Shown: positions 35,761-41,313, counted from the stretch's first letter. The stretch is 49,252 nt of DNA from Candidatus Berkelbacteria bacterium (GCA_037140515.1 JBAXEI010000005.1:1-49252); one strand, 5' to 3'. Translations and numbers: made by a program. Notes: generated from the letters alone by a model not told the origin.

Positions 35761-36357
35761 ATGCGGAGATATGCTGAAAAGATTGAGGTTCACACCATTG
35801 AGGTGTTTACCGACTTGCTGACTGGAGTCGGTACAAGCAAGGTTATGTCGAGAGCGCTTGAGTTGCTATATCGAGATTTTCGGCTCAAGCGGCCGCAAAA
35901 GCCAAATGACCCGACCTGTGCACGGCTCATTTTCTTTGACATGGATGGCCTTAGTTATTTAAACAACAAGTATGGCCATGCAGTCGGTGACCTTGCCCTC
36001 AAGACATTGGCGGAGGGGATCCGAAACTCTCTAAGGGGCGCGGATTTGGTAACCAGAGAGACCAAGGGCGGAGATGAATTTAGAGCACTGATCAAGGCTC
36101 TGTCACCAGATATTCTTGATCTGGCCTATGAACGACTTGAACGGAATGTTCATCAGGGCTTCAAGATGACCTTCAGTTATGTTGATCCCACAGATGGCAT
36201 CACAAAAACCGAAAGCTATCTCGTGACCGCTGGCATCGGGTATGCCGATGTCTCAAGGGAGACAGTGGACACCATTACGGCCAGAGAGCTGACACACTTT
36301 GCAGACATGGCCTGTAATCAAGACAAAGAAGACAGAGGCAAGCGCAGAAAACCATGA
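35761..36357 (+). CDS. GGDEF domain protein (diguanylate cyclase-like); start uncertain
   Basis: TDLLTG, DMDG, NNKYGHAVGD, GGDEF. The frame is open upstream to 35518. Confidence 0.85.
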   Translation: MRRYAEKIEVHTIEVFTDLLTGVGTSKVMSRALELLYRDFRLKRPQKPNDPTCARLIFFDMDGLSYLNNKYGHAVGDLALKTLAEGIRNSLRGADLVTRETKGGDEFRALIKALSPDILDLAYERLERNVHQGFKMTFSYVDPTDGITKTESYLVTAGIGYADVSRETVDTITARELTHFADMACNQDKEDRGKRRKP

Positions 36358-36425: not shown

Positions 36426-37184
36426 TTAGTCTTTGGCAAGCTCCCAGAGCATCTCGAAGAGCTGTTTTTCACCATTTGCGAGGGTTGAGCTCTCGATGAC
36501 GGTGGCGAATGGCTCTTTCACAGAGTGAGCAAGGTAGACTATCATATCGCCAAATATCATCATTTCATGTGCTGCGAACTCGTATTTGTCTTGTGGTAAA
36601 AACTTTGTGGTAATACTCTGCTTTGACAGCTCGCGGTTCAGAAAATCACGACATTCCGGTGTGTCTGGGTAGAGAAGCCGAGTTGGAATACCATGCTTGA
36701 CTCTATTCGCGGCAAATTCGTTTAGAAATTCCTCATATTCTTTTTCCATAATCAAACTCGCATAGACCTTGAGCTCAGTTCCTCTCGGTTGAAGCAAGAC
36801 AAGATTGCAGGCCTCTTTTACCCCTTCAACGCCAGAATACTGGCGTATATTTGGCTTCTCGGTCGATTTGCTCGCTATAGCTTCGAGTTCAGTGGCAACT
36901 TGCAGAGCACGCTTGTGTCTGCGCTCCTCATATTGCATCAGCTGCTTCGTGGAAGCGACGGTGTAGAGCACACGTTTGCCGTCATTTGTGCTCGAAGCAA
37001 GGCCACGCCACATTAGCTCTTCGAGGAGAACATAGCAGGTTGGCCGCTTCACACCGCTCTTTTTGCTTATATCCCAAATCGAAGAAGCCCCTAGCTCCAG
37101 GTTGGCTAGGTAGACAGCTGCTTGGTTTTCGGAGAGCCCCATACTCTCCAAAGCCCTCAAGATTTCATCGTTTTGTGTAGTCAT
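36426..37184 (-). CDS. TrmB-family transcriptional regulator (module 1)
   Basis: MGLSENQAAVYLANLELG...ISKKSGVKRPTCY winged HTH; C-terminal effector-like domain. Confidence 0.88.
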   Translation of the reverse strand: MTTQNDEILRALESMGLSENQAAVYLANLELGASSIWDISKKSGVKRPTCYVLLEELMWRGLASSTNDGKRVLYTVASTKQLMQYEERRHKRALQVATELEAIASKSTEKPNIRQYSGVEGVKEACNLVLLQPRGTELKVYASLIMEKEYEEFLNEFAANRVKHGIPTRLLYPDTPECRDFLNRELSKQSITTKFLPQDKYEFAAHEMMIFGDMIVYLAHSVKEPFATVIESSTLANGEKQLFEMLWELAKD

Positions 37185-37286
37185 AATTATTGACAGTAAT
37201 ATATCGCACATTTAGATAATTGTCAAATCTGAGATCAAAAATGCAAAGAAACGCACAAAATTTACGTAAAAACATTGTCATAATTG

Positions 37287-37315
37287 TTGACGTTTTGGTC
37301 GCGACGTGTTAGAAT
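37287..37315 (+). promoter_or_regulatory. sigma70 promoter of module 1 cargo operon
   Basis: TTGACG-17 nt-TAGAAT with extended TG. Confidence 0.75.
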
Positions 37316-37321
37316 ATGCTT

Positions 37322-37402
37322 GTCACAGTGAGAGACCGATAAGGCGACTTACAGTGAAGACGAGGTGCAGATGCAAAATGGCATCGACCTCAGGAGAAAG
37401 AA
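37322..37402 (+). promoter_or_regulatory. Conserved structured 5' leader (copy A)
   Basis: Highly similar to 39796-39876; its 3' hairpin recurs at 37866 and 38498. Confidence 0.75.
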
Positions 37403-37777
37403 ATGGCAAAGATAGAGACAATCAAAATACAGGGAAAAAAACCAGAAGTATACAAGAATATCGTTTCCATCGTTGATACTGAGTATGACTTTTGGCAAAT
37501 TATCCCAACAAAAGAAATCGACGACCTCGATTTGTGCGCAATAGTGCGTCTCATGCCCGCTGGAAGTGATAGGAAGGGCAAGCTCGACGTGATTAGATTG
37601 GATGCGGCTAAGGAACTGGCTAGGCGCTTAGGACACGAATTAGTCTTGTCCGAAACCTATGCTACAGAAGAAGAGCGTAGCGCAAATTACCGAGCACTGG
37701 GATCGAGAGAGACTCTCGAGTGGTCAGACTTCAGGCATGGTACGCCTTGGTATAGGAACGCAAATTTTGCTCGATAA
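37403..37777 (+). CDS. Hypothetical protein
   Basis: RBS AGGAG; 124 aa. Confidence 0.8.
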   Translation: MAKIETIKIQGKKPEVYKNIVSIVDTEYDFWQIIPTKEIDDLDLCAIVRLMPAGSDRKGKLDVIRLDAAKELARRLGHELVLSETYATEEERSANYRALGSRETLEWSDFRHGTPWYRNANFAR

Positions 37778-37810
37778 TGAGCATTCACCCTCGCACCCTA
37801 AAAAGTGCGA

Positions 37811-37855
37811 GGCAACCTCGAGTCATTAATTACAAATTGATGACTAGAGCGTTGA
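37811..37855 (+). repeat. Intergenic hairpin repeat (copy 1)
   Basis: GGCAACCTCGAGTCATTAATTACAAATTGATGACTAGAGCGTTGA. Confidence 0.85.
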
Positions 37856-37906
37856 AAAACGCAATGAGGTGCAGGTACAGAATGGTACCGGCCTCAGGAG
37901 AAAGAA

Positions 37907-38347
37907 ATGATTAATTGGCTGAAAAAGGTCCTTGGCGTCAAAGAAAACAAAATCGTCGTTCAGGAAGAGATTGTTATCGAAGAAATCGAAATAATAAGTG
38001 AAGAAAAGCAGGAAGCAATCAATTTCTTCACACTCATTTTTGAGCAAGCAGCTTCAAAAGCGACTGATCCTAGCGATCAGGAATACTGCAAAGATGTTGC
38101 AAAGCTATTGATGAGAATCTATGGCCTTTTAAAGGCAAGGAGAGAAGGAGTCATAGAAATCTGGGGCAATCCTAGCACAACGCTAGGTGGGTTCTACTGG
38201 GCAAGGCTGATGGAGGAGCAGCAGCATGTTGCGCTTAGTTCATATGCCAGAATGGTTACTGACAAAGAGATGAGCATAGTGTGTGAAGGGATTCAACCAG
38301 CCTTAATCAGAGTAGTAAAACATAATCAAACCCCCGCTCAAGAATGA
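37907..38347 (+). CDS. Hypothetical protein
   Basis: RBS AGGAG; 146 aa. Confidence 0.8.
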   Translation: MINWLKKVLGVKENKIVVQEEIVIEEIEIISEEKQEAINFFTLIFEQAASKATDPSDQEYCKDVAKLLMRIYGLLKARREGVIEIWGNPSTTLGGFYWARLMEEQQHVALSSYARMVTDKEMSIVCEGIQPALIRVVKHNQTPAQE

Positions 38348-38351
38348 GCGG

Positions 38352-38397
38352 GGCAACCTCGAGTCATTAATTACAAAATTGATGGCTAGAGCGTTGA
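38352..38397 (+). repeat. Intergenic hairpin repeat (copy 2)
   Basis: GGCAACCTCGAGTCATTAATTACAAAATTGATGGCTAGAGCGTTGA. Confidence 0.85.
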
Positions 38398-38538
38398 GAA
38401 AATTTAATATAGGCGCTTGACCTAAAGAAAAACGAGCCGTGTCACCCGTAAGGTGAGCCATGGAAGCAGATCCACAGGTAATTTCGAGATTACCAATAAG
38501 GTGCAGGCATAAATTGATGCCGGCCTAAGGAGTCAGAA

Positions 38539-38844
38539 ATGACTAACGAAAACATCATCACCATTACATATAGAACCGAACATGGTTGTAGAATGGAATG
38601 GTCTGACATGGCGGGACCGCAGAGAGTCGCCCCCAAACATTCAGGCGAAAAAGTTGAGATCATCGGCAATGAAGTTCGACTTATCGACTGGCAATACGCC
38701 GGAGGCCCAGACAAAGGCTGGTCGCCTATAAACATGGGCGAATTGACTACTTATAAAGCTGAGAGCGTAAATTGCGGAGACAATTCTGTGTATTTCGTTC
38801 GCAACGGAGTTAGCTACGCGATAACTGGCCTTCGAAAAATTTGA
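38539..38844 (+). CDS. Hypothetical protein
   Basis: RBS AAGGAG; 101 aa. Confidence 0.75.
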   Translation: MTNENIITITYRTEHGCRMEWSDMAGPQRVAPKHSGEKVEIIGNEVRLIDWQYAGGPDKGWSPINMGELTTYKAESVNCGDNSVYFVRNGVSYAITGLRKI

Positions 38845-38852
38845 GCTCATCG

Positions 38853-38883
38853 TCCCTCACTATTAATTTGGTGGGGGATTTTT
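38853..38883 (+). terminator. Intrinsic terminator of module 1
   Basis: TCCCTCACTA/TGGTGGGGGA followed by TTTTT. Confidence 0.65.
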
Positions 38884-38887
38884 GTAT

Positions 38888-39649
38888 TCACTTGTTTGCG
38901 ATCTGCCAGAGCATCTCGAAGCGCTGCCTCTCAGCGAGTGCAAATGCGCGTGATTCGATCAAGAGTGCATACGGCTCACTCTCGCCAGGAGCAGTAAAGG
39001 TGAGGATATTGCCGAAAATGCACGTTTCTGAGTGAATGTCCTGATAATCAGTCTCGGGCAAGAAACGGATGTCTCTGATCTCGTCGGCGTTATCGCGCGC
39101 CAAGATTTTTCGATGCTCAGGCGTGTCGCTATATAGTAAACGTATATGTATATTATGTTTTTTTCTTTTCTCAGTGAACTCTTGGTAGAAAATCGGGTCT
39201 GCGAAGAAGATCGTGCTGCCATAAACCAAGATCTCGGTGCCTTTTGGCTCTAGAAATACTAGATTGAGCGCTTCTTCTATACCCTTTTTGCCTATGAATT
39301 GACGGACAGAAGGCTTGCTCACCTCAGAATTTGCCAGCGCTTCGAGCTCGTTGAACGTGCCAACCACCTTCTTATGTCGGCGCTCTTCGATCTGCATAAG
39401 CTGTTTCGGGGAAGCGACTGAATAAATGATGCGTTTGCCATCGTTTGAGCTCGAGGCGAATCCTCTGATTGAGAGAACTTCGAGAATATCATAACAAGTC
39501 GGCCGTTTGATGCCGCTCTTTTGGCTTATATCCCAGATAGACGTGGCACCTAGTTCTAGGTTTGCCAAATAGACCTTCACCTCATTGTTTGTGAGGCCAA
39601 GGCTCTGGAGGGCCAAGGATAAATTTTCGTTGTTTAGTGTAGTCGCCAT
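38888..39649 (-). CDS. TrmB-family transcriptional regulator (module 2)
   Basis: Paralog of 36426..37184: YLANLELGATSIWDISQKSGIKRPTCY. Confidence 0.88.
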   Translation of the reverse strand: MATTLNNENLSLALQSLGLTNNEVKVYLANLELGATSIWDISQKSGIKRPTCYDILEVLSIRGFASSSNDGKRIIYSVASPKQLMQIEERRHKKVVGTFNELEALANSEVSKPSVRQFIGKKGIEEALNLVFLEPKGTEILVYGSTIFFADPIFYQEFTEKRKKHNIHIRLLYSDTPEHRKILARDNADEIRDIRFLPETDYQDIHSETCIFGNILTFTAPGESEPYALLIESRAFALAERQRFEMLWQIANK

Positions 39650-39761
39650 TACCGACACATCATATAAAATATTGTACAAAAAGTCAATACATATGCATAT
39701 TTTGATCTCAAATATAACTCTTTTCGTATAGCAAGCAAGGACAATGCTACTGTCGGTAGTA

Positions 39762-39790
39762 TTGACAAAATAGGTAGGAAGTGTTACAAT
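39762..39790 (+). promoter_or_regulatory. sigma70 promoter of module 2 cargo operon
   Basis: TTGACA-17 nt-TACAAT with extended TG. Confidence 0.8.
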
Positions 39791-39795
39791 GGCTA

Positions 39796-39876
39796 GTCAC
39801 GATGAGAGACCGATAAGGCGACTCAAAGTGAAGATGAGGTGCAGGTACAAAATGGTACCGACCTTGGAGACAACAA
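39796..39876 (+). promoter_or_regulatory. Conserved structured 5' leader (copy D)
   Basis: Highly similar to 37322-37402. Confidence 0.75.
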
Positions 39877-40659
39877 ATGAATACTTATAGACCAATGAAT
39901 GATGAGAACAAAGAATTTCTCAACTATGTCATCGCGATGTACAAAGGCCAAGAGGACGATTCTTGCTTTGATGCAACAGGCGAAATCGTTGTTGATTTGC
40001 CGGGCTTGCCTGGCTTCATAGTTAAAAAATTCGTCTATAGCCCACCACATGTAAATGTGGCTATGGCTCATCCCAAAACCATCGCAGCTCGGCTGCAGGG
40101 GAAATCATTTCTTGAGATTGGCACTGGAACCGGAATCTGTGGTGTATATGTTGCTCTTCATGGGCAGCCGTCACATGTCACAGTGACAGATATCAGTCCA
40201 TTAGCTGTCGCAAATGCGCAAGCAAATGCAGTTCGTTATGAGCTCAGTGAGCCAAACTTTCGAGTGATCGAAAGCGACGTTTATTCGGCGCTTACGGCAG
40301 GACAGAAATTTGATTGTATGTTTTGGAATTTCCCTTGGAATGCACAGGATAAGTCTGTAGAAGACACCTTGATTGAAAAAGGTATTGAAGTCACTCCAGA
40401 ACGTGTCTGGCAATTACGAGCGGGGCTCGACCAACAGTACAAAGGGCTTTGCACCTTCATTCGTGAAGGGAAAGAGCACTTAAATGCTGATGGCGAAATT
40501 CTGCTCGGTGCTGGGACTCCGTCTCGGCACGACATCATCTTTGGCGAAGCCAAAAGATGGGGTTATAACATCGAGGTAATTTCTCGCCAGGCTATGGAAA
40601 TAGACAAAATTGGCAACATGCTGTGTGAGACGATCCTCTACCGTCTCACCGTAAAATAA
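39877..40659 (+). CDS. Class I SAM-dependent methyltransferase (HemK/MTS-like)
   Basis: LEIGTGTG, VTDIS, SDVY, FDCMFWNFPW. Confidence 0.88.
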   Translation: MNTYRPMNDENKEFLNYVIAMYKGQEDDSCFDATGEIVVDLPGLPGFIVKKFVYSPPHVNVAMAHPKTIAARLQGKSFLEIGTGTGICGVYVALHGQPSHVTVTDISPLAVANAQANAVRYELSEPNFRVIESDVYSALTAGQKFDCMFWNFPWNAQDKSVEDTLIEKGIEVTPERVWQLRAGLDQQYKGLCTFIREGKEHLNADGEILLGAGTPSRHDIIFGEAKRWGYNIEVISRQAMEIDKIGNMLCETILYRLTVK

Positions 40660-40747
40660 GAAAACTCTGGATCAAACATGAGGTTTGATCCACCTTTCCT
40701 TGCTTCGCAATAGTGCGGAGCAAAGACGAGGTCCTTAGGAGATCGAA

Positions 40748-41272
40748 ATGAGAACATTAATTTTAGCCGCTGCGCTTCTCATCGCAGCATTCACCGCATC
40801 AGCTTTCGGCACCGTCGAAGTTGAAGCTGGACTCGCCAATGGTGGCGAAACAATCCGTTTCTATCAGGCGACACCGCCGAATAAGAATGGGTTCGGGACT
40901 TTCGGTTTCGCCGTGATTAGCAAATTCTATTCACAGGCATACGCAGGCGCAACCTATAGCCCAAACCAGCACATCTGGCTGGAACTGGGGTACGGATTAG
41001 AATCAGTTCCAGGCAACAGTGGAAGAATCGGCGGAACAGCCATTCTATCCTCAGGCCAATTCAGTTTAGTCCACTGCCAAGAGAGTGGCGGGTCAGGTAA
41101 TTTCAACAAGACAGTTCTTAATTACCAAATCAGCCCAAAAGTCACCCTCGGTGTCGTTGACGACAAATTCAACGGCACCGGCCCAAAAGTCGAGTATAAG
41201 CTCGATGGGTACGTTATCCGCTTTGTTGCTTTCCCTGACAAACCATGCTTGTCAGTTATAAAAAGCTTCTAA
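40748..41272 (+). CDS. Exported beta-strand-rich hypothetical protein
   Basis: Signal peptide, alternating Gly/aromatic strands, terminal Phe. Confidence 0.75.
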   Translation: MRTLILAAALLIAAFTASAFGTVEVEAGLANGGETIRFYQATPPNKNGFGTFGFAVISKFYSQAYAGATYSPNQHIWLELGYGLESVPGNSGRIGGTAILSSGQFSLVHCQESGGSGNFNKTVLNYQISPKVTLGVVDDKFNGTGPKVEYKLDGYVIRFVAFPDKPCLSVIKSF

Positions 41273-41280
41273 GCACATCT

Positions 41281-41313
41281 AGGACCGTCTGATTCATTTC
41301 AGCGGTCCTTTTT
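41281..41313 (+). terminator. Intrinsic terminator of module 2
   Basis: AGGACCG(T)CTGA/TCAGCGGTCCT followed by a T-run. Confidence 0.7.

Follow-up and report, generated by a model that had tools for sequence, protein, structure and literature searches.

Contig C5 of a Candidatus Berkelbacteria genome (GCA_037140515.1), which derives from an ultra-small lake bacterium of the candidate phyla radiation (CPR), carries two tandem modules, in each of which a gene for a TrmB-family regulator (T1 or T2) heads a divergent operon of cargo genes (module 1, approximately 36426 to 38889; module 2, approximately 38888 to 41313; coordinates refer to the whole 49,252-nt contig, called the window below). We interpret the modules, with a probability of roughly 0.55, as lineage-specific modular operons that would combine a TrmB-type switch with structured junctions having roles at the RNA level, and whose open reading frames (ORFs) would be exchanged by homologous recombination between the junctions. 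The modules had been noticed in a sequence-only reading, and every element listed there (paralogous regulators, promoters, leader, cargo and terminators) was recovered at the same position; the picture of two modules was real but incomplete, having missed a hairpin, R1, that precedes four cargo genes, the junction that follows genes 1 and 2 of module 1, and a third module of the same kind, which a whole-genome scan located on contig C24. The observation of modular TrmB-headed operons is confirmed, and the system is larger than first described. No prior description of these elements was found in the open-access literature. The source genome (1.17 Mb in 112 contigs, 95% complete) is G000 in the genome comparisons, C-numbers are its contigs, and L-numbers are metagenome loci; 13 metagenome loci code for relatives of the regulator, and all of the relatives compared are metagenome assemblies.

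The leader, the R1 hairpin and the junctions

The two predicted cargo transcripts begin with leaders of 88 nt (37318-37405 and 39792-39879) that are 81% identical, in good agreement with the shared leader of about 80 nt claimed earlier. The 3' half of the leader is R1, a 32-nt hairpin that abuts the Shine-Dalgarno (SD) site. A repeat finder detected a 53-nt motif ahead of four cargo genes (at 37360, 37864, 38496 and 39834), and two further copies are found on C24. The transcribed elements, all on the + strand, are as follows (m1g1 to m1g3 denote the cargo genes of module 1; CM, covariance model).

37322..37359, +, L5, rod-like hairpin at the predicted transcript 5' end, module 1 (RNAfold of the whole leader)
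37360..37405, +, R1 copy 1, with hairpin, SD site and ATG of m1g1 (CM 72.9 bits, E 1.8e-17; covariation)
37789..37812, +, HP1 copy 1, GC-rich hairpin without a T-run (RNAfold −13.7 kcal/mol)
37813..37857, +, HP2 copy 1, CAAC-CTCGAGTCAT..ATGACTAGAG-CGTTGAAA (palindrome search)
37864..37909, +, R1 copy 2, ahead of m1g2 (CM 72.1 bits, E 3.1e-17)
38332..38353, +, HP1 copy 2, which includes the m1g2 stop codon (RNAfold −17.3 kcal/mol)
38354..38399, +, HP2 copy 2 (palindrome search)
38400..38495, +, spacer B, additional conserved stretch holding two more hairpins (also on C24 and in L033 and L035)
38496..38541, +, R1 copy 3, ahead of m1g3 (CM 64.4 bits, E 5.6e-15)
39796..39833, +, L5 of module 2 (leader repeat and RNAfold)
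39834..39879, +, R1 copy 4, ahead of the methyltransferase gene (CM 62.7 bits, E 1.7e-14)
40726..40750, +, degenerate R1 ahead of the fifth cargo gene, outer stem and SD site kept, inner hairpin gone (CM 21.1 bits, E 0.028)

R1 folds into an outer and an inner stem of 5 bp each, separated by an internal loop with GCA opposite G and capped by a 6-nt loop; GGAG comes 1 to 3 nt past the stem, and ATG 6 to 11 nt past GGAG. Among the six copies of the source genome, 98.3% of the cells are paired and four of the five inner pairs have changed on both sides. An alignment of 24 copies, which was fitted to the covariance model and so favors pairing, has 96.2% of its cells paired and double-sided changes in nine of ten pairs. 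The covariation score was reached by none of 500 shuffles, slid controls paired at 29-43%, and the outer-stem variants AGAGT/ACTCT, AAGCC/GGCTT and TGGC/GCCA are evident in the raw sequences. The unpaired positions are conserved (GCA opposite G; a loop near AAAAUG), and the closing G-C pair is invariant. The covariance model gave six strong matches in the 1.17-Mb genome (E 1e-14 to 1e-17), and a chance origin of the R1 copies is excluded because all six fall within the modules. The 24-copy alignment holds 14 G-U cells, and ATG lies at a distance from R1 that varies by 1 to 2 nt; both findings argue for a noncoding element that acts on the sense strand. A coding reading made by eye was dropped for the same variable spacing and because the frame is not kept, and hammerhead and K-turn assignments, also by eye, were dropped because the core nucleotides are not kept. 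Rfam 15 has no described family for R1, HP2 or L5: at the gathering score the window gave tRNAs only, and at E ≤ 10 the interval 37200-40000 gave two chance-level matches, neither of them on the three elements. Most R1 loops hold AUG or UUG, creating short out-of-frame upstream ORFs of variable length (37371-37380 in the window, and equivalents); in the related genome G007 an AUG within R1 is in frame with the gene for a predicted barrel protein, which has no ATG past its SD site.

A line-up of the sequences upstream of R1, together with a palindrome search, yielded 20 HP2-bearing junctions in nine sequences. The order of elements is stop codon, HP1, (T)CAAY, HP2, YRTTGAAA, optionally spacer B, usually R1, SD site and ATG, over 80 to 190 nt, with an A-rich linker between HP2 and R1; in module 1 the repeat finder placed this junction after genes 1 and 2. 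HP1 is present in all 20 junctions as a GC-rich hairpin of 7 to 11 bp (−12.6 to −20.4 kcal/mol), variable in sequence and lacking a T-run. HP2 is a conserved imperfect palindrome, CTCGAGYCAT..loop..ATGRCTAGAG, in which a G-A mismatch is kept in 18 of the 20 copies. Position 7 of HP2 is T-G in 10 copies, C-G in 5, T-A in 4 and C-A in 1; the excess of T-G over C-A, like the G-U cells of R1, indicates that it is the sense strand that folds. The HP2 loop of L033 and L034 (reverse complement, 1535-1633) accommodates a structured insert of about 70 nt, its stem being retained and lengthened to 13 bp. The promoter scan listed no promoter-like site in any junction, and so gives no support to a promoter within them.

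L5 starts at the second base of the predicted transcript. RNAfold of whole leaders gave z-scores of −4.2, −3.8 and −4.9 in three cases and weaker values in two others, and the outer stem, TCAC/GTGA in the window, is replaced by TTCAAG/CTTGAA in L041.

Distribution of the elements and turnover of the cargo

A third TrmB paralog (24% identical), on C24, stands at the head of a divergent operon with the same spacers and two R1 copies; the cargo there comprises a protein of 75 aa, a membrane protein of 79 aa, a paralog of the exported protein of module 2 and a different methyltransferase. The fourth TrmB paralog, on C13, has none of the module elements. A search for the leader beside other TrmB genes, which had been proposed as a check, thus found it at three of the four paralogs of the source genome, in two other genera of the family and in 6 of the 13 metagenome loci. 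When 23 genomes of the family were searched with the R1 model, three others matched (G007, E 9.7e-8; G006, E 2.7e-4; G001, E 0.025). The matches in G007 and G006 lie directly downstream of a TrmB gene; that in G001 was discounted, as it lies inside a recombinase ORF. Leaving the weak remnant aside, eight of the nine R1 matches at E ≤ 0.1 are located in TrmB-headed modules of G000, G006 and G007. No further genome matched among 61 relatives up to class level, in a run with stricter filters. In the six metagenome loci R1 is always on the cargo strand, with five copies in L035 and four in L036. Among 121 related genomes the HP2 pattern was found in two, G000 and G007, and control matches numbered 0. 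Its occurrences in wider genome contigs (51 loci) and viral contigs (7 loci) are single scattered matches in unrelated taxa, which we read as chance. The R1 pattern was likewise scattered over 63 viral loci, none of which passes the R1 model, and at least 120 genome loci, which were scored by pattern only. In these searches the module elements were found only in a narrow lineage and only in TrmB-headed modules.

Close relatives differ in their cargo with ORF precision. The regulators of L033, L034 and L035 are 86-87% identical to T1, and these loci share its promoter, L5 and R1, yet carry different first genes; m1g1 is absent from all three. Between the window and L035 there is a match from 36426 to the m1g1 ATG at 37403, further matches at junctions only, and a last one that begins at 38332, spans m1g3, T2 and the second leader, and reaches the methyltransferase ATG at 39880. 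L036 matches the window from 40654, at the methyltransferase stop codon, through the barrel gene. L033 and L034 are 94.4% identical over the 1,682 nt that end at the start codon of gene 2, are wholly different thereafter, and are re-aligned 2 to 6 nt past the stop codons; R1 just before the break is only about 83% identical, which fits crossovers inside junctions. The same junction type is found next to different ORFs in four contexts, so that the hairpins go with the position rather than with the ORF. When 18 cargo proteins of the relatives were searched by tblastn, 12 had no match in the 95%-complete source genome. In lake-water DNA runs, contigs of lower-depth co-occurring strains leave the window sequence at 37403, 37813, 37864 and 40668. 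Joints in run X1 were rejected as evidence of excision, since an L036-like array in a co-occurring strain would account for them.

The cargo is therefore not fixed in relatives, the ORFs between junctions being different. The earlier suggestion of a reusable platform into which genes are swapped is upheld with respect to reuse (the leader at three paralogs, in other genera and in six loci) and to turnover (the 12 unmatched proteins, and breaks at start codons). The earlier reading goes too far in two respects. Its integron analogy is not supported as a mechanism, as set out below; and the barrel gene adjoins a methyltransferase gene in four modules (module 2 of the window, C24, G006 and L036), a recurring pair which argues that the cargo is not entirely free. 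The methyltransferases beside the barrel genes are related to one another only in part.

Regulators, promoters and cargo proteins

The regulator and cargo genes of the window, with their control sites, are listed below (strand is omitted for the palindromes).

36426..37184, −, T1, TrmB-family regulator of 252 aa, short form resembling TrmBL2, ATG at 37184 (PF01978, E 1.1e-11; fold match)
37180..37194, O1, operator-like palindrome GTCATAATTATTGAC over the T1 start codon (from sequence; putative binding site)
37277..37291, O2, operator-like palindrome GTCATAATTGTTGAC, overlapping the −35 box of the module-1 cargo promoter (repeat and palindrome scan)
37287..37315, +, predicted module-1 cargo promoter TTGACG-17-TAGAAT, TG-extended (10/12 consensus matches)
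37403..37777, +, m1g1, orphan, 124 aa (no family match)
37907..38347, +, m1g2, orphan, 146 aa (one relative, 79% identical, among 5.8 billion proteins)
38539..38844, +, m1g3, orphan, 101 aa (88% identical ortholog at the same place in L035)
38852..38889, +, module-1 terminator, 11-pair stem at 38852-38879, then a T-run (terminator scan)
38888..39649, −, T2, second TrmB-family regulator (PF01978, E 2.5e-13; 51.8% identical to T1)
39642..39656, O1', palindrome GTCGCCATTACCGAC over the T2 start codon (palindrome scan)
39752..39766, O2', palindrome GTCGGTAGTATTGAC over the −35 box of module 2 (palindrome and promoter scans)
39762..39790, +, predicted module-2 cargo promoter TTGACA-17-TACAAT, TG-extended (11/12 consensus matches)
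39877..40659, +, HemK/MTS-type class I methyltransferase, 260 aa (PF05175, E 5.3e-12; NCBIfam HemK-related models)
40748..41272, +, exported signal-peptide protein, predicted 12-stranded beta-barrel (AlphaFold2 and Foldseek)
41282..41313, +, module-2 terminator-like hairpin GGACCG..CGGTCC with TTTTT (read directly from the sequence)

T1 and T2 share 51.8% identity over 255 aa, and the DNA coding for their helix-turn-helix (HTH) segments is 76% identical over 97 nt according to the repeat finder. Both proteins have the winged HTH of PF01978 at the N-terminus, with scores above the curated cut-off, and both genes face away from sigma70 promoters, as had been described; these promoters are TG-extended and near-consensus. 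The AlphaFold2 model of T1 (pLDDT 87.9) was matched by Foldseek to TrmBL2 (5bpd, E 1e-13) and TrmB (3qph, E 1.6e-10), and has the fold of the TrmB family, namely an HTH, a long dimerization helix and a PLD-like effector domain; its TM-score to TrmB-family structures is just 0.38 because the domain orientation differs. A phmmer search of T1 against PDB sequences gave no match, its identity to solved structures being below what phmmer can pick up. The sugar-binding C-terminal subdomain of full-length TrmB and TrmBL1 is missing from T1 (252 aa versus 335 in 3qph), and the regulator scored 25 bits against the NCBIfam equivalogs, whose cut-offs are 600 to 650. The regulator is a short TrmBL2-like form. 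It resembles TrmB and TrmBL2 of the Thermococcales (3qph, 5bpd) in its N-terminal winged HTH, long helix and PLD-like C-terminal domain without catalytic residues, and TrmBL2 also in length (252 versus about 260 aa), but it is bacterial and lacks the sugar-binding subdomain. Foldseek also matched the C-terminal domain to PLD-fold nucleases; however, an alignment showed that the HxK motif of that fold is not kept across T1, T2 and the G007 protein. The protein is therefore read as a regulator rather than a nuclease.

The operator-like palindromes recur in at least 12 related loci with the same placement, over the regulator start codon and the cargo −35 box, and the word GTCA-N7-8-TGAC is found at the TrmB start in most related loci, distant ones included. 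Judged from these sites, T1 and T2 probably bind the GTCA-N7-8-TGAC palindromes. The predicted −10 boxes of the regulator genes end 9 to 13 nt before the ATG, which is itself inside the O1 palindrome (37182-37226 and 39647-39687, − strand); given this distance, both TrmB mRNAs probably have little or no leader. Convergent with T1, at 35761-36357, lies the gene for a stand-alone GGDEF-domain protein of 198 aa, in which the GGDEF motif is intact and a sensor domain is lacking.

As noted earlier, the cargo differs wholly between the two modules of the window, with three unmatched proteins in one and a methyltransferase and a signal-peptide protein in the other, and a terminator ends each operon. 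The scan detected the terminator of module 1; that of module 2, which was read directly, was not listed because its loop is longer than 8 nt. Pfam, NCBIfam, PADLOC and PHROGs gave no match for the three module-1 cargo proteins, and the ESM Atlas nothing usable for m1g1 (model pLDDT 0.37; feature matches score about 0.9). Structure prediction and Foldseek, which had been recommended for the cargo, were run for the exported protein; the model (pLDDT 86.5) is a 12-stranded barrel nearest to KdgM (4fqe, E 2.6e-6, TMq 0.60). The protein has 7 relatives among 5.8 billion proteins, a paralog on C24 (33% identical), and orthologs in L018, L030 and L036. The predicted barrel, nearest the KdgM/NanC porins, ends in Phe (40748-41272; also L008 6387-6896, −). 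Despite this predicted transmembrane beta-barrel cargo, no match for Omp85/BamA was found in the 95%-complete genome.

Across the modules, the recognizable cargo consists of HemK-type and UbiE-type methyltransferases, receiver-like domains, a Sigma70_r4-receiver protein, AAA_28 and CYTH, while most of the cargo is orphan; PADLOC and PHROGs matched only a methyltransferase domain (to mad2) and, weakly, receiver-like domains. AAA_28 and CYTH are fused as a 367-aa ORF in the source genome (C1, 4439-5542), and are two cistrons of a TrmB-headed array in L041 (reverse complement, 925-2704), where a membrane-protein gene lies between them together with two HP1-HP2 junctions that are nearly identical. 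Small and very basic cargo proteins of one family are encoded at L034 2844-3077, L035 3280-3480 and 3605-3781, and L041 1659-1928 (all −). Three of these share a C-terminal WSDDPRD tail, so that the conserved junction reaches into the last ORF codons in those cases.

Proposed mechanism and competing explanations

We propose that the TrmB/TrmBL2-type regulator binds two palindromes, one at its own start codon and one at the −35 box of the divergent cargo promoter, and by virtue of these positions would control both itself and the cargo. The cargo transcript would begin with the rod-like L5 hairpin. Judged from sequence and folding, HP1, HP2 and R1 most likely act at the RNA level: HP1 and HP2 may serve as 3' end-protecting or processing signals, and R1 may be a 5' hairpin that keeps the ribosome site free, independent of the ORF that follows, so that any inserted ORF would then be expressed. 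Given that the same junction is repeated before genes, in three modules per genome and across strains, recombination between copies would swap ORFs precisely, as PeSL motifs do in T4-type phages. Arbiol et al. (2010; PMC2839356) describe PeSL as a short conserved regulatory motif with a stem-loop, which flanks non-essential, mostly orphan ORFs and combines a strong early promoter with a terminator stem-loop; close relatives differ by insertions, deletions and replacements bounded by the motif. The modules resemble PeSL in that a conserved motif bounds the ORFs replaced in close relatives, with breakpoints here at junction edges. They differ in residing on the chromosome of a CPR bacterium instead of in a phage, and in that the junction, which lacks a sigma-70 promoter and in which HP1 lacks a T-run, carries translation signals (R1 and the SD site) inside one regulated operon.

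Integron arrays, including integrase-less attC clusters, consist of promoterless, unidirectional ORFs behind one promoter, with imperfect palindromes between them and a divergent head gene, and the modules share this layout; the sequence-only reading had accordingly likened them to integron or phage cassette arrays. One could envisage that HP2, or HP1 with HP2, folds as an attC-like single-stranded DNA site, and that cassettes are moved by some recombinase. HP2 is indeed a conserved imperfect palindrome with a fixed G-A mismatch, its flanks CAAY...RTTGA loosely resemble the attC core sites (CAAY and RTTGAAA fit the consensus RYYYAAC / GTTRRRY only in part), the arrays are unidirectional behind one promoter, the L041 membrane-protein gene lies between two nearly identical junctions, and the source genome holds the kinds of gene that had been suggested as worth seeking elsewhere (one tyrosine recombinase, one large serine recombinase, one Y1 transposase-like gene and two reverse transcriptases). 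All of these genes are on other contigs, however; no recombinase was found in or beside any module, in line with its reported absence from the window. The sole PF00589 match of the genome is on C8, and the head gene of the arrays is TrmB, not IntI. Y1_Tnp is present in 14 of the 23 family genomes and missing from R1-bearing G006, and thus does not track R1. Nor do the hairpins move with the ORF (L033 versus L034, and the four contexts), and the C-terminal PLD-like domain of the regulator lacks the HxK motif. The attC site works through its bottom strand, and the wobble pairs here favor folding of the sense strand. We regard integron-like site-specific exchange as improbable. Phage PeSL-like recombination between repeated junctions fits better, given that no recombinase is linked and that the junction stays with the position, and homologous recombination is favored by the location of the recombinases on other contigs, the distribution of Y1_Tnp and junctions that are not homogenized. 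Repetitive extragenic palindromes and bacterial interspersed mosaic elements (REP/BIME) of enterobacterial operons are also transcribed palindromes between cistrons, which can protect upstream mRNA, and are dispersed genome-wide; HP1, HP2 and R1, in contrast, occur solely in TrmB-headed modules, and the presence of Y1_Tnp does not track R1.

The modules might instead be ordinary paralogous regulator-operon pairs, in which tandem duplication left the repeats behind and the differences are ordinary indels or assembly chimeras. CPR genomes commonly carry a TrmB gene divergent from its target, leaders are plain at more distant TrmB loci, and raw-assembly contigs break at junctions. Against this, the ORFs between junctions have unrelated folds and so are not diverged duplicates, the hairpins themselves are under selection, as their covariation shows, breakpoints in independent pairs coincide with start and stop codons, and 12 of the 18 cargo genes of the relatives are absent from the source genome; we consider this explanation very improbable. 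The role of R1 allows another view, in which it is not a passive insulator but a sensor; as a small riboswitch, or as an operator bound by a single RNA-binding protein, it would switch translation of every cistron on one signal. The unpaired nucleotides are conserved while both stems covary, the SD distance is fixed, and the size is similar to that of the smallest known riboswitches. The folded hairpin, however, leaves the SD site free with no alternative SD pairing evident, the functionally heterogeneous cargo does not suggest a common ligand, R1 is dispensable at some cistrons, and no Rfam family matches it, all of which leaves a sensor role possible but doubtful. A bolder proposal, which seems to us rather unlikely, is an undescribed chromosomal CPR gene-cassette system, in which ORF-exact units between structured junctions under a TrmB-type switch would be exchanged by a new hairpin-directed mechanism or by homology alone, and R1 would be a new class of riboregulator answering one common factor.

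Several observations weigh against modular operons with RNA-level junctions and homologous exchange. RNAalifold on eight L5 sequences gave no consensus structure, and a search of RNA sequencing runs for the locus found no run with a match. R1 is not obligatory, being absent or degenerate before two of the nine cargo genes in the source genome, and in three L041 junctions HP2 leads directly to the SD site. Junction copies are 81% alike within a record and 78% between records, a near equality that gives no sign of gene conversion still at work. How unrelated ORFs came by the same flanks in the first place is not explained by homologous recombination. Repeated junctions could yield some assembly mis-joins, though the gene-content differences (12 of 18) are independent of gene order.

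The CPR, or Patescibacteria, have tiny genomes and few known means of gene regulation or exchange. Modular operons of the kind proposed would be to cells what modular shuffling is to phages, with the regulatory junction persisting and the ORF changing. They bring three undescribed structured elements (L5, HP1-HP2 and R1), of which R1 has strong covariation support, and may offer a ready-made, context-independent expression frame, possibly usable in CPR bacteria or their hosts. The pool of strain-variable orphan genes that they carry, with a porin-like barrel and its methyltransferase partners and receiver-like proteins among them, provides candidates for host interaction.

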